From the NCBI GenBank assembly GCA_034670305.1, contig JAXMNT010000032.1:23364-87363 (forward strand): a DNA stretch of 64,000 bases. The letters are read 5' to 3'. Position numbers and translations under genes: made by a program. Each line of letters starts with the position of its first letter. Positions within the stretch are counted from its first letter, which is position 1. This DNA comes from Deltaproteobacteria bacterium. Its GTDB lineage: Bacteria; Myxococcota_A; Polyangia; Polyangiales; Houyiibacteriaceae. Positions 6,993-60,480 of the stretch are shown here, piece after piece. A model generated the notes under the pieces. It did no database searches and was not told where the DNA came from. It saw nothing but the letters and a program-made list of their open reading frames with translations.

Positions 6993-7664
6993 TCAGTCCG
7001 CGCTGCGGCTCGCTTTCTCTTCCAGCCCCGACACGCCTGCGCGCCGAGCCAACTCTCCGGCGACATCGCGCAGCGTCTTGCCGCGAAGCTGCAGGCCCAC
7101 CATCAGGTGGTAGAGCACGTCCGCCGCCTCGGACACGACGCGTTCGTCGGACTCGGACGCGAGCGCCTCCGCGAGCTCGCCGCCCTCTTCGCGGATCTTC
7201 GCGCCGATCTTCTCGGCGCCGCCATCGAGCAACCGCCGTGTGTAACTCGTGTCTCCGTCGGCCGAGGCGCGCGCTTCGATCGTCTCCGTCAACGTGAGCA
7301 ACTCCGGGGCGCGGGTCCGCTCGTCCGCGTCGTGGAGCTCCGGGACCTCTTCGCTCAGCTCCAGAAAAAAGCAGGAGGGTTCGCCGGTGTGGCAACTCGG
7401 TCCACTCGGATCGACCAAGTAGAGAAGTGCGTCGCGATCGCAATCGGCGCGCACCGAGAAGACGCGCAGCACGTTGCCGCTCGACTCGCCCTTCTTCCAG
7501 AGCGACTGGCGCGAGCGAGACCAGAACCACGCGATCCCCGTCTCGAGGGTGCGGCTCACCGCCTCCGCGTTGGCATGCGCGAGCATGCGGACTTCGCCGG
7601 TCAAACGATCCTGCGCCACCACGGTGACCAGCCCCGCCGCGTCCCACTTCAAATCCTCGAACAT
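6993..7664 (-). CDS. hisIE: Bifunctional phosphoribosyl-AMP cyclohydrolase / phosphoribosyl-ATP pyrophosphatase
   Basis: WSRSRQSLWKKGESSGN, DCDRD, CHTG..SCF, SYT..LL, EAADVLYH. Confidence 0.97.
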   Translation of the reverse strand: MFEDLKWDAAGLVTVVAQDRLTGEVRMLAHANAEAVSRTLETGIAWFWSRSRQSLWKKGESSGNVLRVFSVRADCDRDALLYLVDPSGPSCHTGEPSCFFLELSEEVPELHDADERTRAPELLTLTETIEARASADGDTSYTRRLLDGGAEKIGAKIREEGGELAEALASESDERVVSEAADVLYHLMVGLQLRGKTLRDVAGELARRAGVSGLEEKASRSAD

Positions 7665-7917
7665 CGAGGCGTGGCTACGCGACGGGGCTACCCGAAGCAA
7701 GAGCGCATTCGCGCTCGCTGGAAGGATCGTCCAATGGCTGGTGTCATCGAACGAGGCCGCCGGGCCAAGTCTGGCCCTGGTGCCATGGCGTTCAGAGATG
7801 TGTTCGACCGGTCCGCCTCTCCCAAAACAGACTGGTCTCCTCCACCTCTACGCTTCGAGGATGGTCGCGCGGGGTCGGGACGCTGGCCTCTCCCAAAACC
7901 AACGCCCCGCGGCGCAA

Positions 7918-8457
7918 CTACCCCCGAAGCGCCGCCATGCGTGCTTCATGAGACGCCCGAGCAATCTCGTCGAGATGGCCCTGCGCGCGGTCGGCGAGCC
8001 GGGTCGCGCGGTCGCTGTGTTCACGATCGGACTCCGCCGCTTCGGCGAATCCATCGGCCGTGATCCCGAGGCCTTCCGCATTGAGGTCCATGTTGGTTGC
8101 TCTGAACTGGAGCCCCGCGTCCACGGCCTTCGCGGTCGCGTCGGTCAACCCCGCGCCCGTCTTGTCGCCAGAAGCGGTCAAGCCGGTGGAAGCCGCGGAC
8201 GCACAGCCGGACATCACGCCCGCGATGAGACGAGTTCGGGCGGCGTCGCGTTTGACGCCGAGCGCTTCGCGACGCGCTGCAGTCCGTTGGCGGCTGCTCT
8301 CTCGGGAGGCGCTCCGGCTCCGGTCCGAGGACTCTTCGAGGCGGGCGGCGGCTTGTTGGATGGTCTGCTCGAGCCCGCCACCGGCGCCGGTGGTGGGGAG
8401 TTCGAAGTCGGCGATGCCGCCGACGGGCGGGGTGGTGGGGCCTTGAATGCGGGTCAT
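7918..8457 (-). CDS. Putative T3SS minor translocator (SctB/YopD-like position), 179 aa
   Basis: Ala-rich helical protein with one weak hydrophobic segment; last gene after the SctE-like ORF. The ORF looks real; the function is inferred from position. Confidence 0.55.
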   Translation of the reverse strand: MTRIQGPTTPPVGGIADFELPTTGAGGGLEQTIQQAAARLEESSDRSRSASRESSRQRTAARREALGVKRDAARTRLIAGVMSGCASAASTGLTASGDKTGAGLTDATAKAVDAGLQFRATNMDLNAEGLGITADGFAEAAESDREHSDRATRLADRAQGHLDEIARASHEARMAALRG

Positions 8458-8530
8458 GGGTGCTTCCTGTTCGTCATGGGTGGGATGGGTGATTGGTGAT
8501 TGGTGGATGGGTGTTGGATTGCGTGATCGG

Positions 8531-9484
8531 TCAGGCGATGGCGCGTGCGGCGACGCTGAGGGACTGCCCCCGCGCTTCTTGCACCGCGTGCATGCGTCTC
8601 GAGATCCGGGCGAAGCGGGTGCGAAGCTTCTTCATCGCTTCGATGGCTGCTTCCATGTCGTCCATCGCGACCTCGGAGTTCAGCCCATGCTCTTCCGCGT
8701 CGATCTGCTCGCCGTCTGCGCGGTAGGTGTGGACGGCGTTCGTCATCTGAAAGCGTGCTTCGTGAGCTTGCTGGGCGGTGCTGACGCACGTGGCGATGAC
8801 CTGCGTGGCTTGTACGACGGTTGCCGCGGTTGACCCGGCTTGTGCGAGTCCGCCCGCGTTTCCGGCAACCGCCATCAGCACCGCTGCGACCAGCTTGAGG
8901 ACAACTGCGGTGATCATGCCGGCTTTGCCGTCGATCTTGCCCTCCTTGGCCAGCTTCTCGACTGCCGCTGCAGCGACGAGCAGCACCGCTGCCGCGGCCA
9001 CGAGCACCATGCTGGCGCCGCCAGTGAATACAGACGCGACGGCGGCGACGATGATCATTACCGCAGCGATCAACTTCTTCGCCCAGTCCGGCAGCTTCTG
9101 ATTCAGAAGCTTCGCCAGGTGCTCCTCCGCGGCCTTGAGCGACTTCATGCGCTCCGCGTCTTCGCCCTCGGACCTGCGGGACGCGGACTCGCTCGAGGCT
9201 TCGCCGGCACGGGTGCGTGCATCCCGCACGCTGGTCTGCATCGCCATCATGGCGGTCATGGGGTCGAGTGCGCCGCCGAGTGCAACCGCAAGCGTGAACT
9301 GCTGTTCGTTGCTCAGCGGCGGACTCGAAGGGCTGCCTGTCGTTCCGCTCGTCCGTCGCGTGTCTCGCCGGGGCGCCGACTCCGCGGGGCTCGTCGTGGA
9401 TCCAATCGGCGCTCCGTTGCGCCCCGCTTCCGCCCGAAGGGGCATCGGCGGCAGAGCCACCGCATCGCTTGCTACACGAACCAC
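8531..9484 (-). CDS. Putative T3SS major translocator (SctE; SipB/IpaB/YopB-like)
   Basis: Ser/Thr/Pro-rich N-terminus, no Sec signal, coiled coil, then [23 protein letters not shown] (cf. SipB VAAVFTGGASLALAAVG), a second hydrophobic helix and a C-terminal coiled coil. Confidence 0.75.
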
Positions 9485-9717
9485 GACATCACCTCTTGCA
9501 TCGCTTCGACCATGTCGGTGTTCCCCTCGCGGCGGTGGAACGCGATGTACTGCGTCCAGGTCTCGCTCCGGGTCAGGTCGAGCATCAGCAGGATGTCGAG
9601 TTGCGTCTCGGCGTCTTCGGTCGCGCCCCGCTTCGCGTCCGCCTGAGCGAGTTTGCCCAGGTGCGCGAGCTGCGGTTCGTCGAGGCCGAGCGCCGACGCC
9701 CAGGAGGCCGTGGTCAT
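9472..9717 (-). CDS. Small TPR-like protein; putative reduced class II translocator chaperone (SycD/LcrH-like)
   Basis: [17 protein letters not shown]...ETW resembles one TPR unit; overlaps both neighbours; lies just before the SctE-like gene. Confidence 0.55.
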
Positions 9718-10370
9718 CGGCCCAGGTTCCCGACGATGCCCGACATGCCTTCGTTCAGCTTCGTGATGAGGTTGGTGCTCATCTGGATGACTTGGGTGCG
9801 CTGCTGGGTGAGCGTCTGGATGGTCATCATCAGCATCTCGTTGCTCGAGTTCACCCGGGTCGACTGCTGCTTCACCGCCTGAATCGTGCTGTTGATCTGA
9901 CCGATGTTGATCTGGCCGCTGTCGTTCGGGTTGATGCCCGGGTGGCCCGCGGCGTTGAGGATGTCGTGGCCGTTGACCTCGCGTGTTCCGCCACCAGGCA
10001 CGTCCACCATGAACTTGAGGTCGTGCAGGTCGACGAGGGTGTCTTCCGCCGTTCCAGTCTTTTGTGCCTCCGCAAGAATGCTGTTCAGCGCTTCCTGCTG
10101 CCGGGTGAGGACCTCGGACGTCTGGGTGTTGTTCTGGAGTCGCTCGAGGGACCCGGCGATCTGGTTGTCCAGGTCGTTGAGGCGCTGCCGCGCCATCGCG
10201 AGGATCATCTCGGGGGAGATGGCGGCCATCGGAAGCGAGTAGCCGGTGCTGAGGGACAGTTCGCCGGCGCGGTACTCGATGTCGGCGATGAACTCGGCCG
10301 GGAGTCCTCCATCGTCGAAGTCCATGTCGGGGTAGATGTCGAGGGCGGGAAGTTCGATGGCGGAAGGCAT
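9714..10370 (-). CDS. Putative T3SS tip/filament protein (Bsp22/EspA/SseB-like)
   Basis: Gln/Asn-rich helical protein; C-terminus [44 protein letters not shown] resembles axial tip-filament proteins; AGGAG RBS. Confidence 0.65.
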
Positions 10371-10379
10371 GAAGGACTC

Positions 10380-10598
10380 CTAGGCGCGCAGGGCGTGGGT
10401 TGGGATGAAGGGTTCGGAGCGGACTGCTTCGGGGGCCGCGACCTGCTTGCGCATTGCTCGCTCCGCATCGGCGAGTGCTTCGGGGTCGAGGTCGAGCTCG
10501 TCGGTGAAGAGCGCGAGCTCTTGGTCCTGACGGGCGCGTTCGGCTTGGAGGCGCTCGAGTTCGAGGCGGAGGCGGGTGGTGCGTTGTTTCTCGGTCAT
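10380..10598 (-). CDS. Small coiled-coil protein (72 aa), first gene of the translocon-like operon
   Basis: [28 protein letters not shown]...; GAGG RBS; 9-bp gap to the next gene. Confidence 0.65.
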
Positions 10599-10759: not shown

Positions 10760-11025
10760 TGTTGCTGCGGCTGACGCTGCTGCCGACTCCGCTGCTGTCG
10801 CTGCTGCTGTCTCTGCTGCTGTCGCTGCTGCTGACTCTGCTGCTGACTCTGCTGCTGACTCTGCTGCTGACTCTGCGGCTGACTCTGCTGCTGTCTCTGC
10901 GGCTGACTCTGCTGCTGACTCTGCTGCTGACTCTGCTGCTGTCGCTGCTGCTGTCACTGCGGCTGTCTCTGCTGCTGACTCTGCTGCTGACTCTGCCGCT
11001 GACTCTGCTGCTGTCGCTGCTGTCG
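10760..11025. repeat. Intergenic degenerate 12-bp tandem repeat (GCTGACTCTGCT / GCTGTCGCTGCT)
   Basis: About 20 units visible directly. Confidence 0.95.
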
Positions 11026-11026
11026 T

Positions 11027-11280
11027 GCCAAAGCCGAACCCGAAGCCGATCCCGAAGCCGATCCCGAAGCCGATCCCGAAGCCGATCCCGAAGCCGACCC
11101 CGAAGCCGATCCCGAAGCCGATCCCGAAGCCGACCCCGAAGCCGCTTCCGAAGCCGCTACCGCTTCCGCTTCCGCTTCCGAAGCCGATCCCGAAGCCGCT
11201 ACCGCTTCCGCTTCCGCTTCCGCTTCCGCTTCCGAAGCCGCTACCGCTTCCGCTTCGATCCCGCTTCCGAATCCCGCTTC
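11027..11280. repeat. Intergenic hexamer-based repeat (CCGAAG CCGATC, grading into CCGCTT/CCGCTA)
   Basis: Visible directly; abuts the previous tract. Confidence 0.95.
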
Positions 11281-11287
11281 GCTCAGC

Positions 11288-12523
11288 TCAGCGGCGGCGG
11301 CGTCTTCGGTTGCCTGGGTACGGGCGGGCGCTGCGGGGGAGGCATTGGACTTCGTCCGGCTTGGTGTCGGTCCAGGTGGCGATGTCGGTGGTGACGGGGC
11401 GGCCGTTGCGGAAGCGGATGCGCGGGCGAAGGAGGGGGAGCGGGTCGCAGTGGGCGCCGTCGTGCACGAGCATGTAGTGGAGGTGGGGGCCGCGGCTGAG
11501 GCCGGTGTTGCCGAGCAGGGAGATGACCTGCCCGCGCGCGACGAGTTCGCCGGTCACCACCAGCAGCTCGCGGTTGTGGGCGTAGGCGGTGACCAGGCCG
11601 TTCGGGTGCACGAGGATGACGAAGCGGCCGTATCCGCCCATGCCGGTGCCCGCGTACGCGACGAGGCCGCGTTCGCTGGCGACGATAGGGGTGCCGGGGG
11701 GGGCGTAGATGTCGACGGCGAGGTGGTAGCCGCCGCGGCCGGATCCCCAGCCGCGCATGAAGGTGCCTCCGTCGATCGGCATGCCGAGGGTGCCGGGGCC
11801 GGCCGTGGGTTCCGGCGCGTCGGTGGCATCGGTGGCGGGGTCGGGATCTTCCTCGTCTTCGGTTTCGTCGGGGACGTGCTCGTCTTCGGAGACCTCTTCC
11901 TCTTCGTCGTCTTCTTCTTCCGCGTCCGCGTCGATGGGTGTGCCGACGCCGTACGCATGGGCCGGGATGGAGCGCGGTGCCCTCGCCGCGGCTGCAATCC
12001 AGCGCGGGTCGGGTGGTTGGCTCACGAGGTTCTGACCCACACGGGTGGCGCCGAGGTCGAGCCGGGTGGCGCGTTCTTCTGCCGCCGTTTGATCGGGTCG
12101 CAGGGCTCGGGTCTCGAGGCGCGGCATTCGGTTCTCGCGCCGCCGACCCGGAATGCGGAGCCGTTGACCGATCCGGATCGAATCGCCCCTCAACCGGTTG
12201 GTCCGCCGCAACGACTGTGCGGTCACGCGGTATCGGCGGGCGATGTGCGAGATGGTCTCACCTCGCCGCACGACGTGGAATCCTTCGCGCCGTGCTTGCG
12301 CGGCGGAACCACGACCGGGAATGGTCAACCGGGCGCCGATGCGCACGTTGTCGCCGCGCAGGCGGTTGGCGCGGCGTAGGTCGGAGATGGGCACTCGGAA
12401 ACGACGCGCGATCCTCGCCAAGGTGTCGCCGGACCGAACCGTGTAGGAACGATCGGCGTGTGCGGCGGGCGCCGTAGGCGCGACGCACACGATGGCGACG
12501 AGGATCCACGCGTACCACTTCAC
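11288..12523 (-). CDS. LysM + M23 family peptidoglycan endopeptidase
   Basis: Signal peptide, two LysM repeats ([32 protein letters not shown]), acidic linker, HLAVD and GPHLH zinc motifs. Confidence 0.93.
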
Positions 12524-12755
12524 TGGGCGCGACCTTGTCGGTGCGGTCCTGTCGAAACGCAGCTCAGTTCGTTCAACTCGACCCGGGCTGAAGTCGGCGC
12601 CACCACGCACACAGGCTGAACGCGTCGCGGCAGAGTGTCGACCCGAGCGCGGAGCGGGGCCACGGACGAGGCGACGGGGGGGATCTCAGACACGGTGCAG
12701 GGACGCATTCGGGGCGAATTGCTTCAACGACACCCCGAGCCGCCAAGGCGTCGGT

Positions 12756-28998: not shown

Positions 28999-29184
28999 AT
29001 GCTGTTGGTTCTGGCGGCGTTGGTCTGGGTGCTGCCGCAAGTGGTCGCGGTGGGCGTCCTCATCTGGAAACGGGACGAGGCCGGCCGATGGCCTTTCGCG
29101 GGCGGTGGCGCCCTACTGGCGCTGCTCGTCGGCACCTACGCGGCGTGCGCGATCGACAGTTCGACCATCTTGTACGCCACCTGA
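28999..29184 (+). CDS. Small two-TM hypothetical protein
   Basis: Two hydrophobic segments; lies just upstream of the PKS; start uncertain. Confidence 0.45.
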   Translation: MLLVLAALVWVLPQVVAVGVLIWKRDEAGRWPFAGGGALLALLVGTYAACAIDSSTILYAT

Positions 29185-29236
29185 CCATCCCCACCGAAGC
29201 GCTGGCTTGTGGGCGTGGCTTTGGTATGACCGCGCG

Positions 29237-32200
29237 GTGTCAGAGGACTACAGCGAAAGCGACATCGCGATCGTCGGAATGGCCGCGCACCTGCCCGGTG
29301 CCCGGACGATCGACGACTACTGGACCAACCTCGTGGACGGGGTCGAATCCGTACAGCGCTACAGCGATGAAGAACTCATCGAAGCGGGGGTCCCGCGCGC
29401 GCACCTTCGGCATCCGCGGTACGTGAAAGCGGCCGCGGAGCTCCAGGACATGGAGCTCTTCGACGGAGAGTTCTTCGGGTTCAGCCCGAAAGAATCCGCG
29501 ATCGTCGATCCGCAGCACCGGCACTTTCTCGAGGTCTGCTGGGAGGCGCTGGAAGACGCTGGGCACCCGCCGTCGAAGTTCGACGGTCCGATTGGGATCT
29601 ACGGCGGCTGCGGCATGGGCAGCTACTTCTACTTCAACCTCTGCAGCAACCCGAACCTCGTCGACTCGGTCGGCATGTTCCTCTTGCGGCACACCGGCAA
29701 CGACAAAGACTTCCTCGTCACCCGCGTCGCCCACGTGCTCGACCTGACCGGCCCGGCCGTGAACGTGCAGACCGCCTGCTCTACCTCGCTCGTCGCCGTG
29801 CACTACGCGATCCAGTCGCTGATGAACCAGGAGTGCGACATGGCGCTCGCGGGCGGGGTGACGATCGAGATCCCGCACCGCCGCGGCTACTTCTTCGAAG
29901 AGGGCGAGATCCTCTCGCCGGACGGCCACTGCCACGCGTTCGATCACCGCAGCCAAGGCACCGTGTTCGGAAGCGGCGCGGGCGCCGTGGTGCTGCGGCG
30001 CCTGGAAGACGCACGCGCCGACGGCGACCACATCTATGCGGTCATCCGTGCGACCGCGATCAACAACGACGGCGCCAGCAAAGCCGGGTACCTCGCACCC
30101 AGCGTGCAAGGACAGGCGACCTGCATCGTCGAAGCCCACGCGCTCGCGGACGTCGATCCGCGCAGCATCGGCTACGTGGAGTGCCACGGCACCGGCACCT
30201 ATCTCGGCGATCCGATCGAGGTCTCGGCGCTGACCGAAGCGTTCCGCCAAGGCACCGACGACAACCAGTTCTGCGGCATCGGATCGGTCAAGACGAACAT
30301 CGGTCACCTCGACACCGCCGCCGGCGTGGCCTCGTTGATCAAGAGCGCGCTCATCCTCGACCGCGAGATCGTGCCGGCCACGCTCAACTTCGAGAAGCCG
30401 AACCCGACGATCGACTTCGAGTCGAGCCCCTTCTACGTCAACGCGAAACGCAAGGAGTGGAAGCGCGGCCCCGAACCACGCCGGGTCGGCGTCCAGTCGC
30501 TCGGTGTCGGCGGCACCAACGCGCACGTCGTGCTGCAGGAAGCGCCGGCGCCCGCACCCTCCGGACCGTCCGCCCACACCGACCACCTCTTCCTGGTGAG
30601 CGCGCGCAACCGCGGCGCGCTGGATCAGACAGCCCAGAAACTCGCGGACCATCTCGAGACCACCTCGGATCGGCTCGCGGACATCACGCACACCCTCCAC
30701 GTGGGCCGCCACGAGTTCGAACGTCGACGCGTCGTCGTCGCGGCCAGCGGTGCGGAAGCGGCCACCCGTCTGCGCGGCAAGGATCCGCGCCGGGTCTTCA
30801 ACCACGTGGCACTCGACCAGCCGAAGGTGGCGTTCCTCTTTCCAGGCGGCGGCGCGCAGTACGTCTCGATGGCGAAGGATCTCTACGACCGCGAGCCGGT
30901 GTTCCGCGCGGTCATGGACCGCGCGTTCAAGTACCTGGCCACCAAGGACCTCGACCACGATCCGAAAGCGCTGCTCTTCGGCGAGGTGGACGACGCGGCC
31001 GCGCGGCTCGAGAAGCCCGGCTCCCAGCTCTCGATGATCTTCTCGGTGAGCTACGGACTCGCGCTGCTCTTCGAAGATCGCGGCGTGGTGCCGGACGCGA
31101 TGACCGGACACTCGATGGGCGAGTACGTCGCGGCGTGTTTGGCGGGTGTGTTCTCGTTCGAGGACGCGCTCGGGCTCGTGCTCCTGCGCGGGCAGCTGAT
31201 GGACCGGGTCGAGGTCGGCGCGATGCTCTCGGTCCCGCTCACCGAAGAGGCCATCGCCCCGCTGCTCGGTGCGGACTTGGATCTGGCGGGCGTGAACGCG
31301 CCCGACCTGATGCTCGTCAGCGGACCGGTACCCGCGATCGAAGCGCTCGAGGAGACGCTCCAAGCACAAGACATCGAACCGCAACGGGTGCGCATCGACC
31401 GCGCCGCGCACTCGCGCATGTTCGATCCGATCCTCGAAGACTTCCGCGCGTACATCTCCAAGATGAAGCTGCAGCCGCCGACGAAACGGTTCGTCTCCAG
31501 CAACACCGGCACCTGGATCACGCCCGCGCAGGCCACCGATCCGAACTACTGGACACGCCACTTGCGCGAGACGGTCCGGTTCAGCGATGCCATCGACACA
31601 CTCGCCGCGGACGCGCCGATGATCTTCGTCGAGGTCGGCCCCGGCCGCGCGATGAGCGCGTTCGCCAAAGCCAACCCGCGGGTCGACGCACAGACCGTGG
31701 TCAACGCGCTTCGGCACCGCGACGAAGTCGTCGCCGACGACGTGTTCTTCCTCGAAGCGATCGGCCGCTTGTGGGCGCTCGGCCTCTTCTCGAACCTGGA
31801 CGAAGACGCGGACAACCCGCTCGACCAGCTCTGGGCCGGAGAGACCCGCCGACGGGTGCGCTTGCCGACCTACGCGTTCCAGCGCCAGCACTACTTCATC
31901 GAACCGGGCGTCTCGAGCGGTGCGGCCGCCGCGCCCGAAGTCACGCGCCACGAGGAAGTCGCGGACTTCGGCTACGAACCCTACTACCGGCCGGTCGCGG
32001 CCGAGCCCGCCCACACCTCCGCCGATGCGCGCGACGCGGAACGGTTCCTGGTGTTCCTCGACGACGCCGGGGTCGGCAAACGACTCGTCGCGGCGCTGCG
32101 TACACGCGGCGACCAGGTCACCACGGTGCGACCGGGCGACACCTTCAGCAAGCGCGCCGACGGCGAGTACGTGCTCGCGCCCGAGCGCGGCCGAGAAGGC

Positions 32201-35200
32201 TACGACCAGCTGGTGCAAGATCTCGTGCAGTCCGCGCGGGTGCCGACCCGGATCGTGCACCTGTGGTTGACCACCGCCGACGAAGGGTTCCGCCCCGGGT
32301 CGAGCTTCTTCCACCGCAACCAGGAGCGGGGCTTCTACTCGCTGCTCTTCCTCGCGCAGGCGCTCGCCGACGAGAACGTGCCGCGGCCGCTGCACCTGCA
32401 GGTCGTGACGAACAGCGCGCTTGCGACCGGCGACGCGCCGGCCCGCTACCCGGAGAAGGCGACCGCGCTCGGCCCGGTCCAGGTCGTGCCGCGCGAGCTT
32501 CCCGGCGTGACCGCGTCCTTGCTCGATGTGACTTTGCCGCAGTCCAGCCGCCGCCTCTTCGGCGGCCGGCTCGCGATGGCGCTCGTCGACCCGTTCGCGG
32601 GCAAGAAGACCCTCACGCTCGGGCTCGACCAACTGGCGGAGACCGTGCTCGAAGAAGCCGACGCGGTGCCGCGCGAATGCGTCGCGGCGATCCGCGAAGG
32701 CAAACGGCTCGAACGTGGCTACCGCTCTCGGGCGCTGTCGACCTCGGAAACCGGTGCCTCCAGCGAACAGGTCCTGCGCAAGCACGGGGTGTACGTCCTG
32801 ACCGGTGGGCTCGGCGGACTCGGTCTCGTGGCCGCCGAAGCACTCGCCCGCAGCGTGCACGCGAAGCTCGTGCTGGTGGGCCGCACGCCGCTGCCCGAAC
32901 GAGACAGCTGGGACGCCTACATCGCAGAGCACGGCGAAGCCGACCGCACGAGCCGGCGTCTGCTCGCGGTGCGGGAACTCGAAGCGCTCGGCGCCGAAGT
33001 GCTCGTGCTCGCGGCCGACGTCACCAACGTCGAACAGGTGCGCGCGGTGGTCGCCGAGACCAAACGGCGCTTCGGCCGTATCCACGGGCTGCTCCACACC
33101 GCGGGCACCGTGTCCGACGCGCTCATCCAGACCAAACGGCTCACCGAAGTCGAGGACGTCTTCGCGCCGAAGGTGCACGGCACCGAAGTGCTCCGCGAAG
33201 TGTTCGCGCCCGAGGGGCTCGACTTCGTGCTGCTCTACAGCTCGACCTCCACCGCGATCGCACCGACGGGCCAGGTCGACTACGTCGCCGCCAACGCGTT
33301 CCTCGACGCGATGGCGTCCACCGAGGGCACCTTCGGCACCGCGCGGGTTCAGGTGGTCAACTGGGGGATCTGGAACCAGGTCGGCATGGCCGCCGAAGCG
33401 ATGTCGAGCTCGGATCTGAGCCGGAGCCCGGACCAGCTCAAGCCCACCACACACCCGCTCTTCGATGGCCGCCTGCGGGACACCCACGGCACGCTTCACT
33501 TCTTCGGGAAACACGCGACCGACACCCACTGGATCTACGACGAGCACCGCGTCAAATCCGCTCGAGCCGCCACGGATGGGGACAGCCGTGGTTGGGCGCT
33601 GATCCCGGGCACCGGCTACTTGGAGCTCGCGGCCGGCGCACTCGCCGAACTCGGAGAGTCCGCGCCGTTCGCGATCGAAGATCTCTACTTCTTGCGTCCG
33701 CTCCAAATCGACGACGGACAGTCGCGCGAGGTGCGCGTGAAGATGCGCCGCACCGACGCGGGCTACGCCATGGAAGTGCGGAGCGAGTGTTTGGTCGAAG
33801 GCCGCCGCGCGTGGCAACTCCACGCCCAGTGCGGCTTGAGCGTCGCGAAGGCGGAAGTGCCGGCGCGCATCGATCTGGACGCGGTCGAGCAGCGGTGCCG
33901 CGATCGGGTCGAGCGCGGAGACGGACTGCGGTCGCCGCAGGAAGCGCACCTCTCGTTCGGTGGTCGGTGGCGGGTGCTTCGGGAGGTGCGCTACGGCGAA
34001 CGAGAAGCGCTCGCGGAGCTCTGTCTGCCGCCCGATGCCGAAGGCGATCCGGCAGCCGGTTGGCGTCTGCACCCCGCGCTCATGGATCTGGCCACCGGCT
34101 ACGCAATGGGACTCATCGAAGGCTACGGCGGCGCCGAAGTCTGGGTGCCGGTCAGCTACGAGTCGGTGGAGGTCTTCGGTCCACTCCCGGCACAGATCCG
34201 GAGCTGGGTCCGGAGCGCGGGCGAGAACACGAGCGACGGTCAGTTCGCGCTCTTCGACGTCGACATCACGGATCTCGAAGGCCACGTCGTGTTGCAGGTC
34301 CGCCGCTTCGCGATTCGCAAGATGGCGCAAGCGGACTTCGGGGCCACCCGCGCGCCGACGCGCGGCGACGTCGAGATGGAACGCGACCCGCGCGCGGAAG
34401 AAGACCGCCCGCTCTCACCGGCGGAGCAGCGGCTCCGGCGCAACCTCGAACGCGGCATCGTGCCGAGCGAGGGCGGCGAAGCGCTGGTTCGATTGATTGA
34501 ATCGAAACGCCGGCAAGTCATCGTCACCAGCCTCGACCTGGCCGGCTTGATGGAAGAAGCGAAGCAGGTCGTGGAGTTGCCCGAGGGCGGGAGCGCCAAG
34601 TTCGCGCGCCCCGATCTCGACAGCGACTACGTGGCCCCGCGCGACGATGTCGAGCGCACGCTGGTCGGCTTCTGGGAGGAGCTCTTGGGCGTCGACCAAG
34701 TCGGTGTGCAGGACAGCTTCTTCGACCTCGGGGGGCACTCGCTCATCGCAGTCCGGCTCTTCGCGATGGTGAAGAAGGCGTACCAGGCCGAGTTCCCGAT
34801 CAGCGTGCTCTTCGAGGCGCCGACCGTCGAAGCCTGCGCCGAGCTCATCAAAGAGGCGATCGGCTTCACCGAAGATGGGGCCGCCGAGTCCGCGCCGAGC
34901 AAGAAGGCACCGAAGCGCCGGTACACGCACCTCGTGCCGATGCATCCGGGCGTCGGTGGGCACACCACCTCGGACGACACCGAGCGGCCTCCGTTCTTCT
35001 TGGTCGCGGGCATGTTCGGCAACGTGCTGAACCTGCGCCACCTCGCGCATCTGCTCGGCACCGACCGCCCATTCTACGGGCTGCAGGCGAAGGGCCTCTA
35101 CGGCGGCGACGCGCCCCACGAGACGTTCGAGGAGATGGCCACCGCGTACATCGCGGAGATGCGCACCGTGCAGGCCAAGGGGCCATACTTCGTGGGCGGG

Positions 35201-35761
35201 TTCTCCGGCGGCGGCTACACCGCGCTCGAGATCGCACGGCAGCTTCGCGCCGAAGGCGAAGAGGTGCCGATGCTGGTGATGCTCGACACGCCCGCGCTGC
35301 TCGTGCCCCGCAAGCTCTCGCCCCGAGACCGCGCGACCATCCAACTTCAGCGCATCCAACAGAAGGGCGCCGGCTACGTGGTGGAGTGGGCGCAGAACCG
35401 GCTCGAATGGGAGCTCGGCAAACTCCGGCAGCGCTTCGAAGAAGAAGAGCAACTCGCCGAGACCGAGTTCCACAACGAAGCCATCGAAGGTGCGTTCCGC
35501 CGCGCCCTGGCGCGCTACACCATTCCCCACTGGGACCAACGCCTGGTGCTCTTCCGGCCGCCGCTCGAGAAGGCGTACGACCTCGGGGACGGGCGGATCC
35601 TCAACCACGACCGCGAGTACGTGTACCCCGACAACGGCTGGTCCGAGCACTGCGATCAAGTCGAGGTCTACGAAGTACCGGGGGACCACGACTCGATGGT
35701 GCTGGAGCCCAACGTGCGCGTGATGGCGTCCCGACTGAAACAGATCCTCGAAGACGTTTGA
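29237..35761 (+). CDS. Single-module type I polyketide synthase, KS-AT-KR-DH-carrier-TE
   Basis: KS: TACSTS, HGTGT, NIGHL. AT: GHSMG, RAAHS. KR: GGLGGLG, YVAAN. DH: EHRV...PGTG, HPALMD. Carrier: GGHSL. TE: GFSGG, GDH. Confidence 0.96.
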   Translation: MSEDYSESDIAIVGMAAHLPGARTIDDYWTNLVDGVESVQRYSDEELIEAGVPRAHLRHPRYVKAAAELQDMELFDGEFFGFSPKESAIVDPQHRHFLEVCWEALEDAGHPPSKFDGPIGIYGGCGMGSYFYFNLCSNPNLVDSVGMFLLRHTGNDKDFLVTRVAHVLDLTGPAVNVQTACSTSLVAVHYAIQSLMNQECDMALAGGVTIEIPHRRGYFFEEGEILSPDGHCHAFDHRSQGTVFGSGAGAVVLRRLEDARADGDHIYAVIRATAINNDGASKAGYLAPSVQGQATCIVEAHALADVDPRSIGYVECHGTGTYLGDPIEVSALTEAFRQGTDDNQFCGIGSVKTNIGHLDTAAGVASLIKSALILDREIVPATLNFEKPNPTIDFESSPFYVNAKRKEWKRGPEPRRVGVQSLGVGGTNAHVVLQEAPAPAPSGPSAHTDHLFLVSARNRGALDQTAQKLADHLETTSDRLADITHTLHVGRHEFERRRVVVAASGAEAATRLRGKDPRRVFNHVALDQPKVAFLFPGGGAQYVSMAKDLYDREPVFRAVMDRAFKYLATKDLDHDPKALLFGEVDDAAARLEKPGSQLSMIFSVSYGLALLFEDRGVVPDAMTGHSMGEYVAACLAGVFSFEDALGLVLLRGQLMDRVEVGAMLSVPLTEEAIAPLLGADLDLAGVNAPDLMLVSGPVPAIEALEETLQAQDIEPQRVRIDRAAHSRMFDPILEDFRAYISKMKLQPPTKRFVSSNTGTWITPAQATDPNYWTRHLRETVRFSDAIDTLAADAPMIFVEVGPGRAMSAFAKANPRVDAQTVVNALRHRDEVVADDVFFLEAIGRLWALGLFSNLDEDADNPLDQLWAGETRRRVRLPTYAFQRQHYFIEPGVSSGAAAAPEVTRHEEVADFGYEPYYRPVAAEPAHTSADARDAERFLVFLDDAGVGKRLVAALRTRGDQVTTVRPGDTFSKRADGEYVLAPERGREGYDQLVQDLVQSARVPTRIVHLWLTTADEGFRPGSSFFHRNQERGFYSLLFLAQALADENVPRPLHLQVVTNSALATGDAPARYPEKATALGPVQVVPRELPGVTASLLDVTLPQSSRRLFGGRLAMALVDPFAGKKTLTLGLDQLAETVLEEADAVPRECVAAIREGKRLERGYRSRALSTSETGASSEQVLRKHGVYVLTGGLGGLGLVAAEALARSVHAKLVLVGRTPLPERDSWDAYIAEHGEADRTSRRLLAVRELEALGAEVLVLAADVTNVEQVRAVVAETKRRFGRIHGLLHTAGTVSDALIQTKRLTEVEDVFAPKVHGTEVLREVFAPEGLDFVLLYSSTSTAIAPTGQVDYVAANAFLDAMASTEGTFGTARVQVVNWGIWNQVGMAAEAMSSSDLSRSPDQLKPTTHPLFDGRLRDTHGTLHFFGKHATDTHWIYDEHRVKSARAATDGDSRGWALIPGTGYLELAAGALAELGESAPFAIEDLYFLRPLQIDDGQSREVRVKMRRTDAGYAMEVRSECLVEGRRAWQLHAQCGLSVAKAEVPARIDLDAVEQRCRDRVERGDGLRSPQEAHLSFGGRWRVLREVRYGEREALAELCLPPDAEGDPAAGWRLHPALMDLATGYAMGLIEGYGGAEVWVPVSYESVEVFGPLPAQIRSWVRSAGENTSDGQFALFDVDITDLEGHVVLQVRRFAIRKMAQADFGATRAPTRGDVEMERDPRAEEDRPLSPAEQRLRRNLERGIVPSEGGEALVRLIESKRRQVIVTSLDLAGLMEEAKQVVELPEGGSAKFARPDLDSDYVAPRDDVERTLVGFWEELLGVDQVGVQDSFFDLGGHSLIAVRLFAMVKKAYQAEFPISVLFEAPTVEACAELIKEAIGFTEDGAAESAPSKKAPKRRYTHLVPMHPGVGGHTTSDDTERPPFFLVAGMFGNVLNLRHLAHLLGTDRPFYGLQAKGLYGGDAPHETFEEMATAYIAEMRTVQAKGPYFVGGFSGGGYTALEIARQLRAEGEEVPMLVMLDTPALLVPRKLSPRDRATIQLQRIQQKGAGYVVEWAQNRLEWELGKLRQRFEEEEQLAETEFHNEAIEGAFRRALARYTIPHWDQRLVLFRPPLEKAYDLGDGRILNHDREYVYPDNGWSEHCDQVEVYEVPGDHDSMVLEPNVRVMASRLKQILEDV

Positions 35762-54638: not shown

Positions 54639-56936
54639 CTAGAGCATCGAGACGGGGTCGATGTCGACGCTGGCTCGGACGCTTCCGAAACCCTCGTCGA
54701 TTCGGGCGGCGATCTTCGCGGCCACGGCGCGGAGGGGCTTCGTTTCGCCTCGGATCAAGAAGCGGTGGCGGAAGCGGGAGCGCAACCGGGCGATGGGGGC
54801 GGGCGCGGGTCCGACGACTCGGATGCGGCCTTCGCCGACGGCGGGGTGGCGGCGGGCGAGGTTGGCGAGGGTCTGGATCGCTTGGCGGGTCTTCTCGTCT
54901 GAGCCACCGTCGGCCCGGACCGCGACGAGCCGGGAGATCGGGGGGTACTCGAGGTCCTGGCGCTCAGCGAGTTCGGCTTCGAAGAAGCGCTCGTAGTCGT
55001 GGGCGGCCGCGGCCTGGATCGCCGGGTGCTCGGGTTGGTACGACTGGAAGAGCACCCGCCCCTTGCGTTCGCCCCGACCGGCGCGGCCGGCGACCTGCGC
55101 CAGGAGCTGGAAGGTGCGCTCGCCGGCCCGAAAGTCGGGGAACGCCAAGGACTGATCGGCTTGGACGACGCCCACAAAGGTCACACCTGGCAGATCGTGG
55201 CCCTTCGCGACCATCTGGGTGCCGACGAGCACGTCGACTTCGCGCCGCCGGAGCCGCCCAAGGATCTCTTCGATGCGCGGGCCGGAGGCGACATCGCGGT
55301 CGAGGCGGGCGACCCGCGCGTCCGGGAAGACTTCACCGAGCGCTTCTTCGAGTTGCTGGGTGCCGAGGCCGCGGGTGAGCAGCTCCGCGGAGCCGCACTT
55401 CTCGCACTGCTCCGGGATGCGGGCGCGGTGGTCGCAGTAGTGACAGCGGAGCGAACCTTCGTGGTCGGCCCCGCCCTTCCGGCGGTGGACTGTGAGCGCG
55501 ACGCTGCAGCCCGGGCACTCCGCCACATGACCACACGCGGTGCAGCGCACACTCGGGGCGAAGCCGCGGCGGTTGAGAAAGAGGATCGCTTGGTCGCCAT
55601 CGCGCAGACAATCGGAGAGGTGGCGGTGCAGGGGGCCGCTGATCAACAGATGCGGCGTCGGGCCTTTGCGGTGTCGGCGGAGATCGATGACCTCGACCTG
55701 GGGGAGCGGGTGGGAGGTCGCGCGCTCGGGCAGCCGCAGCAGCTCGAGCCGTTTCTCGTGTACCGCGCCGTGGTAGGACTCGACGCTCGGGGTGGCGCTC
55801 CCGAGCACGCAGATCGCGCCGGCGCGCGCCGCCCGCAAGAGCGCCATGTCGCGGGCTTGGTAGCGGAACCCGTCCTCTTGTTTGAACGAGCCGTCGTGTT
55901 CTTCGTCGACGACGATCACACCGAGCTCCGGGACCGGGGCGAACAACGCCGAACGTGCGCCGACCGCAAGCCGCAGTTCCCCGCGGCGCAGGCGGCGCCA
56001 CGCTTGGTCGCGCTCTCGGTCCTTGAGGCCGCTGTGCAGCACCGCGATCTCGTCGCCGAAGCGGGCCCGAAAACGGTCGACGAGTTGCGGCGTCAGCGCG
56101 ATCTCGGGCACGAGCAAGAGTGCGCCTTTGCCCCGCGCGCGCGCTTCGTCGATCACGTGCAGGTACACCTCGGTCTTGCCGGATCCGGTCACGCCGTGGA
56201 GCAAGAACCCTTGCGGTGCGTGCGGCGGTGCGTCCGAACCTTGGCGCGCCCGCTCGATCATCCGCTCGACCGCGCGGGCCTGCGCGGGATGCAACGTGGG
56301 CGGCGTGTCGCGCACGACCGCTTTGCCGAAGAAGGGATCGGTCAACACCTCGCGGGTCTCGACCGTGACCAGACCCTTGCCTTCGAGTGCCAGCACGACC
56401 TGCCGCGCCCTTGGACCGATCTGTTGGCGCAGCTCCGAGAGTGAACGTTCTCCGTGCGCGAGCGCGTCCATCGCCGCAGCCTGCGACTTGCCGAGCGTCG
56501 GCCACGGAGGTTCCGCCGCGAGCGTCGCGAACATCTCTTCTTTGGTGCCGATCGCGCGGCCCTTGATCGACTCCTTCTCGTCGAGGAACCCCTTCTCCCG
56601 AAGTCGGCTGAAGGCACCCTTGGGCAGTGCGGGCGCGGCCGCGCGAAGCACCTCGCCGACCGGGTGCAGGTAGTAGCGCCCCGCTTCGATCAAGAAGCGC
56701 AGGAGCTCCGGTCCAAACACCGGCTCCCGCTCGAGCCGACCCGCCACCCGCAAGATGCGCTTCACACCTTCGGGCGCTTTCAACGGATGACCGACGACGA
56801 ACCCCGCGAGCTTGCGTCCGTGGAAGGGCACCGCGATCCGCGCGCCGAGCGGTAGCGCCGGATCGTCCTGAGGGACGCGGTAGGTGAAGGTGCGGCGCAA
56901 CGGCACGGGCAGCGCGACATCGACCAGGTCACTCAT
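54639..56936 (-). CDS. priA: Primosomal protein N' (replication restart helicase)
   Basis: GVTGSGKTEVY, VPEIALTPQ, DEEH, four CxxC pairs, QVAGRAGR. Confidence 0.98.
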   Translation of the reverse strand: MSDLVDVALPVPLRRTFTYRVPQDDPALPLGARIAVPFHGRKLAGFVVGHPLKAPEGVKRILRVAGRLEREPVFGPELLRFLIEAGRYYLHPVGEVLRAAAPALPKGAFSRLREKGFLDEKESIKGRAIGTKEEMFATLAAEPPWPTLGKSQAAAMDALAHGERSLSELRQQIGPRARQVVLALEGKGLVTVETREVLTDPFFGKAVVRDTPPTLHPAQARAVERMIERARQGSDAPPHAPQGFLLHGVTGSGKTEVYLHVIDEARARGKGALLLVPEIALTPQLVDRFRARFGDEIAVLHSGLKDRERDQAWRRLRRGELRLAVGARSALFAPVPELGVIVVDEEHDGSFKQEDGFRYQARDMALLRAARAGAICVLGSATPSVESYHGAVHEKRLELLRLPERATSHPLPQVEVIDLRRHRKGPTPHLLISGPLHRHLSDCLRDGDQAILFLNRRGFAPSVRCTACGHVAECPGCSVALTVHRRKGGADHEGSLRCHYCDHRARIPEQCEKCGSAELLTRGLGTQQLEEALGEVFPDARVARLDRDVASGPRIEEILGRLRRREVDVLVGTQMVAKGHDLPGVTFVGVVQADQSLAFPDFRAGERTFQLLAQVAGRAGRGERKGRVLFQSYQPEHPAIQAAAAHDYERFFEAELAERQDLEYPPISRLVAVRADGGSDEKTRQAIQTLANLARRHPAVGEGRIRVVGPAPAPIARLRSRFRHRFLIRGETKPLRAVAAKIAARIDEGFGSVRASVDIDPVSML

Positions 56937-56985
56937 GGGCAACGCACGCATCCCACGGCCGGGCCGCCGGGTCGAGTGGCGCAGC

Positions 56986-57168: not shown

Positions 57169-57503
57169 GCCGCGACCAACGTCCGCCGCATGCGCTCGAC
57201 GTGCGCGCTCAGCTCGAGCAGCCGTTTCGTCTCCGCCATCGCCTCCCGCACCACCGGATCGGAAGAGGTGCACAAACGCTCGGCGGCGACCTCGAGCGCG
57301 AGGCACGCGTGGGGATCCAAGCCGCGCGGCAACGAGGTGCGACGCGCGCCGCGAAGCGATGGGCTTGTTGCGGCCGATCGGACCGTGTCGTGTCCCAACC
57401 GAAGCTCCGCCGCGTCGAGTTCACGCGCGCTGGCCGGCCCGGGTTCGGGCGCCAGGGTCGCCAAGGTCGCCAGAGGGATCCCAGCCGAACGAACGCGGAT
57501 CAT
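57165..57503 (-). CDS. 112-aa protein coupled to sctU, possibly SctX-like
   Basis: ATGA overlap with the sctU stop; amphipathic C-terminal helix RLLELSAHVERMRRTLVAA. Confidence 0.55.
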   Translation of the reverse strand: MIRVRSAGIPLATLATLAPEPGPASARELDAAELRLGHDTVRSAATSPSLRGARRTSLPRGLDPHACLALEVAAERLCTSSDPVVREAMAETKRLLELSAHVERMRRTLVAA

Positions 57504-58540
57504 TGCTGTTTGCCAGACTCGGCCCAGGCGGCGTGCAGCACCGCGGCGACCGCTTCGAACAAGCTCTCCGGGATCTGTTCCCCGAGCTCCAGGCCAAAGA
57601 GCGAGCGGGCGAGCGGCACGTCGCGCATCACCGGCACACCCGCCTGGTGCGCCGCGGCGATCATGCGTTCGGCCAGGTGCTCCTGCCCGCGCGCGACGAC
57701 TTCGGGCGCGTCGGCTTCGTCCGCGTCGTAGCGCACCGCCACCGCGATGTGGGTCGGGTTCACCACGAGCACATCCGCCAGGCGCACCTGTTCGACCGAA
57801 TCGTGTTCGACGATCTCCCGGTGCAGGCGCTCGCGCTGTTGCTTCGCGTGCGGATCACCTTCGGCCTCCTTGTACTCGCGCTTGACCTCGTCCTTGGTCA
57901 TCCGCTGGTCTTTCTGGTGGCGCCAGCGCTGGTAGAGCAGGTCGACGATCGCGAGCGCCAAGACCGCACCGGCCACCCGGAAGAGCAGCACGGTGACCAG
58001 CTCCCCGGCCGCCGACAGTGCCGCGGCGGCGTCGCGGGCCGCCAGCCCCGACACGCCACGCACGCCATCGGAGAGCACCCGCGCAACGACGTACCCGACC
58101 ACGCCGAGTTTGAAGAGGCTCTTGAGAAACTCGATCCACTGGCGCTGAGAGAAGAGGTTCTTGGTGCCGCGGACCGGATCGATGCGCTCGAGTTTGGGCT
58201 GTAGAGGCTGGAACGTGAGCAGCCCACCGACTTGGACGTAGCCCGTCACCGCCGACGCCAGCACCGCCGCGACCAACACTGGGACCAGCACGTCCAGCCC
58301 CACCGCCATGCCCATCTCGAGCGATGCTTGACCGGCCGGCAACGAGGTCGCGCCGCGGAGCAACGCGCCCACGCCCGACCGGAGCGTCTCCAGACTCTGG
58401 GTGCCGGTCGCGACGAGGGCACCGCCGGTCGCGAGCAGCACCGCCGCGGTCCCGAGTTCTTTGCTCTTTGGGACCTCCCCACGCTCGCGGGCCTGCCGGA
58501 GCTTCTTGGGGGTGGGATCCTCGGTTTTCTCGCCCGCCAT
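57500..58540 (-). CDS. sctU: Type III export switch protein, SctU/FlhB family
   Basis: GEKTE.PT.KKL..AR..GEV.KSKEL, 4 TM helices, MTKDEVKREYKEAEGDP, NPTH autocleavage motif. T3SS versus flagellar assignment is inferred. Confidence 0.95.
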   Translation of the reverse strand: MAGEKTEDPTPKKLRQARERGEVPKSKELGTAAVLLATGGALVATGTQSLETLRSGVGALLRGATSLPAGQASLEMGMAVGLDVLVPVLVAAVLASAVTGYVQVGGLLTFQPLQPKLERIDPVRGTKNLFSQRQWIEFLKSLFKLGVVGYVVARVLSDGVRGVSGLAARDAAAALSAAGELVTVLLFRVAGAVLALAIVDLLYQRWRHQKDQRMTKDEVKREYKEAEGDPHAKQQRERLHREIVEHDSVEQVRLADVLVVNPTHIAVAVRYDADEADAPEVVARGQEHLAERMIAAAHQAGVPVMRDVPLARSLFGLELGEQIPESLFEAVAAVLHAAWAESGKQQ

Positions 58541-58551
58541 GCACGCCGACC

Positions 58552-58578
58552 TTATCAGCCGGTGTGACGCAGAGTTGC
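58552..58578 (-). promoter_or_regulatory. Candidate sigma28 (FliA)-like promoter of sctU
   Basis: GCAA-N15-GCTGATAA; the -10 matches GCCGATAA at 7 of 8 positions; only 11 nt from the ATG. Confidence 0.4.
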
Positions 58579-58699
58579 CCAACCGTCCGGATCAACGGCA
58601 GATCTCACCCAATGGGGGATGCCCAGCGGCGATCGTTTCCTTCGGTTGATCGAAAAGCCGTCCTGTCGCGTACATGCGCACATGGTGTACAGTGCCCAC

Positions 58700-60295: not shown

Positions 60296-60480
60296 GGATC
60301 GAGCGAACGCAGAGGCGCTCGCTGAGCTCGGACCAAGAGGGGCTGAGCACGGTCGAGTACATCATCATCCTCGTGCTCATCGCGGTGCTGGCGATCACGG
60401 TTTGGCGCCAGTTCGGCCAAGCGGTGGAGACCAACGTGCGGGACTCGACGGCCGACGTGCAGGGTCTGCGGGGCAGCTGA
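60292..60480 (+). CDS. flp: Flp/Tad type IVb pilin
   Basis: DQEG|LSTVEYIIILVLIAV: prepilin cleavage site with Glu5-Tyr6; 62 aa; ATGA overlap. Confidence 0.92.
   Translation: MRIERTQRRSLSSDQEGLSTVEYIIILVLIAVLAITVWRQFGQAVETNVRDSTADVQGLRGS

Follow-up and report, generated by a model that had tools for sequence, protein, structure and literature searches.

A conserved five-gene operon with candidate needle and translocator genes in a Sandaracinus-like myxobacterium with dispersed type III secretion core genes

The five-gene locus and its conservation

We describe here a group of five genes in a 64,000-nucleotide stretch of contig JAXMNT010000032.1 (assembly GCA_034670305.1), referred to below as the window, whose host is a Sandaracinus-like myxobacterium. 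The genes, A to E, are consecutive open reading frames (ORFs) on the minus strand (Table 1) and are candidates for the exported distal parts of a type III secretion system (T3SS). An earlier note on this DNA, made from the letters alone, had read them as a compact translocon module. Its description of the ORFs is accurate: all five are present with the lengths and the tight spacing given there, the protein called Gln/Asn-rich and helical (B) contains 15.1% Gln plus Asn, that called Ala-rich (E) contains 19.6% Ala, and a 14-residue string quoted from D is found in that protein.

The distances between A and B, B and C, C and D, and D and E are 9, -4, -13 and 73 nt, so that C overlaps both of its neighbours, B by 4 nt at the start of C and D by 13 nt at the stop of C; a further 217 nt separate E from hisIE. 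Sequences resembling ribosome-binding sites (GAGGA, AGGAG, GAGG and AGGAAG-like) precede the starts of A, B, D and E, with GAGGA belonging to the ATG of gene A. None of the five proteins has a hydrophobic N-terminus, as judged by hydropathy only and not by a dedicated signal-peptide predictor. Hydrophobic stretches occur in D, a weak one is present in E, and A, B and C include none. A scan for promoters and terminators was uninformative (0 promoter-like sites; 3 terminator-like sites against 2.8 expected).

Families were aligned as A1 (D, 21 sequences), A2 (E, 17), A3 (B, 26), A5 (C), A6 (A) and A7 (a deep alignment of B). A six-frame search with D was positive for 29 of 61 genomes, a count that includes the genome of the window; D-positive genomes comprise 22 of the 36 of the same family, and six other families of the order contribute one each. 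In these 29 loci tblastn detects B in 27, E in 19 and hisIE in 24, and the order B-D-E-hisIE is found throughout, one rearranged locus excepted. An ORF occupies the gap between B and D in 18 of 21 loci, the gap being absent in the other three; 17 of these ORFs, of 65-140 aa, align with C, and one of 45 aa (L013) remained unaligned and was dropped. Similarly, a small ORF lies just upstream of B in 20 of the 22 loci with enough flanking sequence, and a selection of 16 aligns with A.

The same operon is present on 15 named public contigs (a narrower alignment, A4), with titles naming Sandaracinus sp. (2), Sandaracinaceae bacterium (2), Polyangiales bacterium (5), Myxococcota bacterium (3), Deltaproteobacteria bacterium (2) and uncultured bacterium (1). 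Their usual neighbourhood is recA, a 356-aa ORF, carD and then A-B-C-D-E-hisIE, hisIE being present in 13 and carD in 8 of the 15. In the window the block from A to hisIE is inverted relative to its relatives and lies beside the same recA and carD genes. Both the position next to hisIE, which had been noticed previously, and the gene order, for which a synteny comparison across the Polyangiales had been suggested, are conserved.

In a sample of 301 genomes spanning the phylum, a profile of the D family found members in 12, every one of which belongs to the order of the window; as this search was a stricter first look, the count is a floor. B was recovered at full length in 18 genomes of the order and by a C-terminal match only in 5 genomes of three other families. 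A tblastn search with D against 72,556 plasmids gave no match, and a homolog search with D alone, restricted by its word index, returned only 3 proteins. The B family is large in size: in environmental data, 3056 cluster representatives match with E <= 1e-3, and 944 of them reach E <= 1e-10. All seven named NCBI rows of this family carry the title 'hypothetical protein', the label that a routine pipeline had been expected to give.

The ratio of nonsynonymous to synonymous substitution rates (dN/dS) lies between 0.04 and 0.67 in all 16 gene comparisons made in five close genome pairs, indicating purifying selection. B is the fastest-evolving gene of the operon in these pairs, which would fit an exposed part of a machine. 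The A, B, D and E families each have exactly one significant match in the window's own genome, namely this operon. The conserved gene order, the dN/dS values and the single match per family place these ORFs beyond chance.

Table 1. Coordinates of the operon, of the dispersed core genes and of other features mentioned in the text
Feature	Contig or genome	Position	Strand	Product	Remarks
Gene A	window	10380-10598	-	72 aa from ATG	108 aa with alternative GTG start at 10706
Gene B	window	9714-10370	-	218 aa	acidic
Gene C	window	9472-9717	-	81 aa	acidic, isoelectric point (pI) 4.5
Gene D	window	8531-9484	-	317 aa	basic, GTG start
Gene E	window	7918-8457	-	179 aa	Ala/Arg/Gly-rich
hisIE	window	6993-7700	-		flanking landmark outside the machine; Pfam PRA-CH and PRA-PH, NCBIfam HisIE 2.9e-64
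SctU	window	57500-58582	-		Pfam Bac_export_2 1.1e-107; NCBIfam SctU 341.8 bits vs FlhB 307.3
priA	window	54639-56951			beside SctU
SctV	C50
SctR	C15	L042:9546-10736	-	397 aa	FliP domain at 187-392
SctS and SctT	C13				adjacent
SctJ	C6
SctQ	C99	L047:1756-2250	+
SctN	C88
ORF between SctV and A	G006	L074:9159-10454	+	432 aa
Spacer with tandem repeats	window	10765-11280			between operon start and LysM-M23 gene stop
LysM-M23 gene	window	11288-12610
Polyketide synthase gene	window	29105-35761	+	2218 aa	type I; KS-AT-KR-DH-ACP-TE
Pilin-like match	window	60037-60477	+		Flp/Fap pilin, E 4.4e-5, below cut-off

Protein families of the operon products

The D family is related to SseC. The Pfam model SseC (PF04888) is matched by 8 of the 21 members of A1 at E <= 0.01 (best 5.2e-10), no other family recurs, and a homolog of the same length and 53% identity (P0003) scores 39 bits against a cut-off of 30.2. 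Profile comparison by hhalign aligns A1 with EspD of enterohaemorrhagic Escherichia coli (EHEC) over 103 columns (E 1.3e-3, probability 18%) that take in both the coiled coil and the hairpin of hydrophobic helices. The hydrophobic stretches of D are residues 131-180 (KD19 up to 2.62) and 184-216. AlphaFold2 (predicted local distance difference test score, pLDDT, 69; predicted template modelling score, pTM, 0.28) predicts 58 disordered residues at the N-terminus and helices at 75-128, 133-152, 157-180, 186-208 and 220-316, that is, a long helix, three short hydrophobic helices where two had been described, and a 97-residue C-terminal helix. D shares with SctE proteins a central hydrophobic hairpin flanked by long helices, and the GG turn of this hairpin is nearly invariant in the family. 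The FTGGAS motif that the earlier note gives for the hydrophobic region of SipB and IpaB is absent from EspD at the position aligned to D. PDB sequences searched with the A1 profile gave chance-level rows only. The similarity to SctE that had been proposed is thus found at the profile level, and D appears to be a divergent relative of SseC/SctE and a candidate major translocator.

Gene E is directly downstream of D and encodes a single, weakly hydrophobic segment (residues 77-95, KD19 maximum 1.30), as expected for SctB. The NCBIfam model SseD (NF052420) is the sole family to recur among its relatives, matching 8 of the 17 A2 members weakly at E <= 0.1 (0.0016-0.1; best 1.6e-3). The hhalign comparison of A2 with EspB covers 37 columns over a helix and the membrane segment (E 1.3e-3, with a weak probability in the 15-18% range), and the nearest ESM Atlas clusters (score 0.95) are annotated as SctB2 (18-29% of members), YopD or IpaC_SipC. 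The A2 profile gave only chance-level rows against PDB sequences. These results support the suggestion that the 179-aa protein corresponds to SctB; since its own SseD score lies below the curated cut-off, we file E as an 'SctB-like' candidate minor translocator rather than as a family member.

The family of B shows homology to needle subunits in its C-terminal helix. PF09392 is matched by 12 of 26 relatives and by 51 of 150 sequences (best 4.8e-7), and the SctF model TIGR02105 by 35 of 150, the next most frequent family reaching 3; the set of 150 consists of B of the window and 149 of the 150 best library representatives. The hhalign comparison with the C-terminus of EscF covers 34 columns (E 1.8e-3, probability 15%). 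A confident AlphaFold2 model (pLDDT 83, pTM 0.67) shows about 50 disordered N-terminal residues and then a long hairpin, formed by helices 53-104 and 156-217 and interrupted by a small beta insert about 50 residues in length. In the structural comparison that had been proposed for these proteins, the modelling part agreed with the helical character of B; Foldseek proved not diagnostic for B and returned nothing for D. The A3 profile reached, in the PDB, a 43-residue chain of 7y6c at the C-terminal helix (E 0.54, not significant). A canonical needle protein is a small helix-turn-helix hairpin of about 70-90 aa, and B is far longer. The gene order cited in the earlier note (lcrG-lcrV-lcrH-yopB-yopD) would make B an LcrV-type tip protein; because the family matches SctF needle models at its C-terminus instead, B is best described, from its sequence relatives, as a needle-family subunit of filament size with an N-terminal extension, and not as such a tip.

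The TPR-like nature attributed earlier to C is confirmed by the A5 profile, which matches consensus tetratricopeptide repeat (TPR) proteins of the PDB (i-E values for single repeats as low as 4.8e-5) and spans about two repeats (positions 13-83 of 85). Class II translocator chaperones such as SycD/LcrH, SscA and CesD have three TPR repeats and about 150-170 aa; C shares their fold and not their size. We presume this mini-TPR protein to be a chaperone. A complex prediction for C with residues 1-135 of D scored 0.00 and provides no support; as the controls did not fold, it speaks neither for nor against binding.

Gene A encodes an acidic protein (pI 5.1) with an N-terminal coiled coil, whose family shares a conserved C-terminal P-x-aromatic-x-A-L-R-[A/V/G] end. 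Pfam, NCBIfam and ESM Atlas gave no usable match, and our guess is that A is a putative chaperone, regulator or small substrate. The E family also carries a conserved C-terminus, A-L-R-G, so that A and E both end in A-L-R-[A/G]. TPR domains often bind C-terminal peptides, and these ends may therefore be what C recognises.

A dispersed injectisome-type export core

The window genome (7.9 Mb, 105 contigs, 96% complete) was searched for the T3SS families SctV, U, R, S, T, J, Q, N, C and F and for the HrpJ gatekeeper. It contains exactly one above-cut-off match each for FHIPEP/SctV, FlhB/SctU, FliP/SctR, FliQ/SctS, FliR/SctT, YscJ/SctJ, FliMN_C/SctQ and the T3SS ATPase SctN. Among NCBIfam models the injectisome version scores higher than the flagellar one for seven of these eight genes, the exception being SctS (FliQ 96.8 vs SctS 94.6 bits). 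Four of the proteins, SctV, R, S and Q, score above the curated thresholds of the Sct models, and SctV is 39% identical to EscV. The earlier note had named the sctN, R, S, T and V genes as ones that its reading could not do without, and all of them are present, together with sctU, J and Q. A canonical short needle gene was not found in the genome.

Pfam scans of the gene neighbourhoods place these eight genes at seven sites, each among unrelated housekeeping genes, with only SctS and SctT adjacent. The operon had been described as detached from the basal-body genes; indeed there is no core cluster at this locus, but this understated the situation, since the dispersal extends to the whole core, and SctU is itself located in this window. 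No other core gene accompanies SctU there; its neighbour is priA, an adjacency found in 17 of 19 loci of relatives, and the dispersal is therefore old and stable. SctR carries an N-terminal extension of about 180 residues before its FliP domain, and its gene lies between those of an ion channel and an extracytoplasmic function sigma factor, near mreB and mreC. SctQ is directly followed by a GspC-like gene of the type II secretion system (E 1.2e-12), a proximity that could hint at a link to one secretin system.

The operon is connected to this core in two ways. In one relative (G006) SctV and the operon are divergently oriented, SctV being about 1.5 kb upstream, with one ORF between them; the product of this ORF is dissimilar to those of the LysM-M23 gene and of a 232-aa upstream gene in the window. 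In addition, the operon has been lost from genomes in which SctV was not found. FHIPEP was detected in 54 of 61 genomes; four without such a match (G002, G034, G020 and G039) have no operon at its conserved site, nor does G136, which belongs to the same genus as G002 and in which FHIPEP was not tested. The sites in these five genomes keep recA-carD-hisIE or recA-hisIE together, and hidden Markov models of all five families found nothing at the loci. Two of the four, counting G002, belong to one genus and two to other genera. SctU was also not found in three of the four searched for it.

Other features of the window and its relatives may be noted. The spacer upstream of A includes two arrays of 12-nt tandem repeats, the first made up of CTGCTGCTGACT (21.5 copies) and the second of AAGCCGATCCCG-type units (about 20 copies), which can be read as low-complexity peptides in several frames. 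The LysM-M23 gene beyond it was considered as a T3SS-associated peptidoglycan hydrolase and rejected, as it is not conserved beside the operon in the 15 named loci. A weak pilin match is located about 1.5 kb from SctU, and the polyketide synthase gene is followed by genes for a PKD-domain protein and a Ser/Thr kinase. DNA of the window is present in four sequencing runs of one 'plastic metagenome' study, with no RNA run among them. Eight relatives (G012, G010, G041, G005, G014, G008, G003 and G038) carry a second FlhB-family gene, about 34% identical to SctU of the window, next to a second FHIPEP gene (>800 bits). This pair, which the window genome does not have, would represent either a further T3SS, with clustered genes, or an export gate of the flagellar type.

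Interpretation and comparison with known systems

We consider it likely that the operon codes for the distal, exported components of a non-flagellar T3SS (NF-T3SS) with singly scattered core genes. Three unrelated genes, D, E and B, each point to a different class of T3SS substrate; B and D have N-termini with at least 50 disordered residues, and none of the five proteins carries a signal-like hydrophobic N-terminus. The single-copy injectisome-type core, the adjacency of SctV in one relative, the shared loss and the dN/dS values below 1 argue in the same direction. The products of A to E probably include T3SS substrates of the classes named; a pore-forming role specifically is put forward with less confidence, and the contact-dependent delivery deduced in the earlier note is likewise hypothetical. 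In this scheme the SctRSTUV export gate, with the SctN ATPase, SctQ and SctJ, would secrete B, and the SctF-type helix at the C-terminus of B would mediate its polymerisation into a structure resembling a needle or filament. The mini-TPR protein C, whose gene directly precedes and overlaps the SctE-like gene, a site typical of class II chaperone genes, would keep D and E soluble in the cytoplasm, or might serve B. Once exported, the SctE-like D and the SctB-like E would insert into the membrane of a target, a prey bacterium or a eukaryote, as a translocation pore. A would be a small helper or regulator.

Several observations weigh against this proposal. D, E and B of the window themselves fall below curated cut-offs, so that family membership rests on their relatives: D scores 14 bits against PF04888 (E 0.037; cut-off 30.2), E scores 15.7 bits against NF052420 (E 0.012; cut-off 130), and B matches neither PF09392 nor TIGR02105. 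With proteins of EHEC, hhalign gave weak matches (probability 15-18%), and none was obtained for A3 with EspA or for A5 with EscG. Foldseek retrieves generic helical hairpins with the B model, the EspA filament ranking third (E 0.053), and the top VIA-align row, the IpaB coiled coil, is tied with unrelated rows at a Z score of 12.6, a value to which long helices can rise by chance. The proteins differ in size from their counterparts (D 317 vs EspD 374, E 179 vs EspB 312 and B 218 vs EscF 73 aa). No SctC-grade secretin was identified, the best of three secretin-family genes scoring 122.8 bits for TIGR02516 (cut-off 238.45), and an HrpJ gatekeeper was not found in the 96%-complete genome. One relative (G022, 90% complete) includes D and no FHIPEP match, and across 60 relatives D and SctV are not significantly associated (27/1/26/6, Fisher p 0.11), in a test on related genomes and with a single-protein D search that misses members. 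The clean excision of the operon from its conserved site in lineages with no SctV match is more telling than this table. Finally, expression and secretion of the products are putative.

The failure to find an SctC-grade secretin or a gatekeeper, and the unusually small size of the proteins, also favour a different use of the same T3SS substrates, in which there is no translocon in a host membrane and B, D and E form a conduit through the periplasm and outer membrane of the producer itself, or an adhesive surface filament. The view that myxobacterial T3SSs have no outer-membrane channel, expressed in the available passages of PMC3459982 and PMC10849154, fits this as well. The recurring families are, in contrast, all of translocator or needle type, with known members acting outside the producer, and the three other secretin-family genes could be borrowed. 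We regard this alternative as improbable, although nothing here separates it from the proposal of an exported needle and translocon.

It is very unlikely that the operon is independent of the T3SS and specifies alpha-helical pore-forming or membrane-remodelling proteins, such as a ClyA/Hbl-type tripartite toxin or a PspA/ESCRT-III-like set. All the proteins are helical with hydrophobic hairpins, one of 17 members of the E family matches HblD (6.7e-4), and the B model aligns to the hairpins of PspA, Vipp1 and ESCRT-III (Z 10-11.5). These matches are, however, single or generic, whereas those to SseC (8/21), SseD (8/17) and SctF (51/150 and 35/150) recur, and the operon is missing where SctV was not found and adjoins SctV in one relative. 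Least probable of all, a derivation from flagellar axial proteins (FlgK/FlgL/flagellin-like) and their chaperones, suggested by one flgK_ends match among 150 B-family members (3.4e-5), by hook-associated protein and flagellin cores in weak Foldseek rows and by the second FHIPEP/FlhB pair of some relatives, is difficult to reconcile with a genome which has only one FHIPEP and one FlhB-family gene, in which most core genes score higher with Sct than with flagellar models, and with D and E, which have no flagellar counterpart.

The exported needle and translocon thus remain our preferred explanation. In the accessible text of Abby and Rocha 2012 (PMC3459982) the myxobacterial systems are described as having no secretin, SctF, tip or translocon, and excerpts of PMC10196010, PMC11821767 and PMC11509652 treat myxobacterial T3SSs as degenerate or needle-less. 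In reviews and in the main evolutionary study, PMC3459982 and PMC10849154 among them, the stated absence of needle, tip and translocon homologs from myxobacterial T3SSs was used to argue that the first NF-T3SS was not a contact-dependent injector. A search of the literature on T3SSs of Sandaracinus and the Polyangiales, on Myxococcota injectisomes and on myxobacterial SctF found no description of the operon; supplementary tables, which the search did not cover, may list such genes. What is new, and supported in its essentials, is a compact operon combining needle and translocon genes of a fully dispersed injectisome with no recognised secretin, in a lineage from which such parts are said to be missing. 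The operon, conserved across the order, offers a candidate needle-class subunit and candidates for the two translocators, and because every gene is dispersed, the complete export core is invisible to tools that require clustering. Injection of proteins into prey or protists by these predators and the order in which needle, translocon and secretin were acquired can now be tested. A more speculative and rather unlikely extension is that Polyangiales-type myxobacteria have inherited vertically an injectisome with no secretin and singly dispersed genes, which has retained a needle-family subunit and the SctE/SctB pair. If this is true and the system branches early in the T3SS tree, needle and translocon would predate secretin recruitment, at odds with the sequence of events given in the literature, and Myxococcus would have become 'needle-less' through secondary loss. 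As another possibility, D and E may themselves breach the outer membrane of the producer or of a prey bacterium, which would represent a bacterium-to-bacterium use of a translocon.

The operon has the gene order of the translocon operon of Salmonella pathogenicity island 2 (SPI-2), sseA-sseB-sscA-sseC-sseD: in both, a small helical protein, a filament- or needle-class subunit, a TPR chaperone, SctE and SctB would follow one another, and the curated models that respond here are named after SseC and SseD. The proteins are much smaller here (317 and 179 aa, and 81 aa with about two repeats for the TPR protein), the B family matches SctF models and not EspA/SseB models, and the operon lies among housekeeping genes far from other T3SS genes. 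The LEE4 operon (sepL-espA-espD-espB-cesD2-escF-escG by annotation) of the locus of enterocyte effacement (LEE) in EHEC and enteropathogenic E. coli also combines SctE and SctB genes, adjacent and in this order, with a filament or needle gene and small chaperones, and the weak matches of D to EspD, E to EspB and B to EscF cover topologically matching regions. LEE4 is, however, part of a 35-kb island with all core genes, whereas the core is dispersed here, and EspA and EscG have no detectable match in the present operon.

In Yersinia and Pseudomonas the corresponding arrangements are yscE-yscF-yscG and lcrH-yopB-yopD. As in the first, the needle-like gene here is flanked by genes for a small helical and a TPR-like protein and, as in the second, a TPR chaperone gene would directly precede two translocator genes. 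No LcrV-type tip gene was recognised here and a single mini-TPR gene lies between the needle-like and the SctE-like gene, a position from which C could serve either role.

Scattered NF-T3SSs are known from Chlamydiales and Hamiltonella, as reported in part of PMC3459982. In the Chlamydiales the core genes of a complete NF-T3SS are likewise spread over several loci (PMC3459982, same passages); these are at least four multi-gene loci, unlike the eight genes at seven places described here. The nearest comparison within the phylum is the 'needle-less' T3SS* of Myxococcus xanthus (Cystobacterineae), which also has no dedicated secretin. It has been assigned a role in contact-dependent prey lysis and, in the available passages of a 2024 review, is stated to have no homologs of any needle or translocon component (PMC10849154). 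T3SS* is clustered, according to the accessible parts of PMC3459982 and PMC10849154, and the D family was found only in the window's order in the stricter first look at the phylum (12/301 genomes); the system of the window is dispersed and is accompanied by candidates for both needle and translocon.

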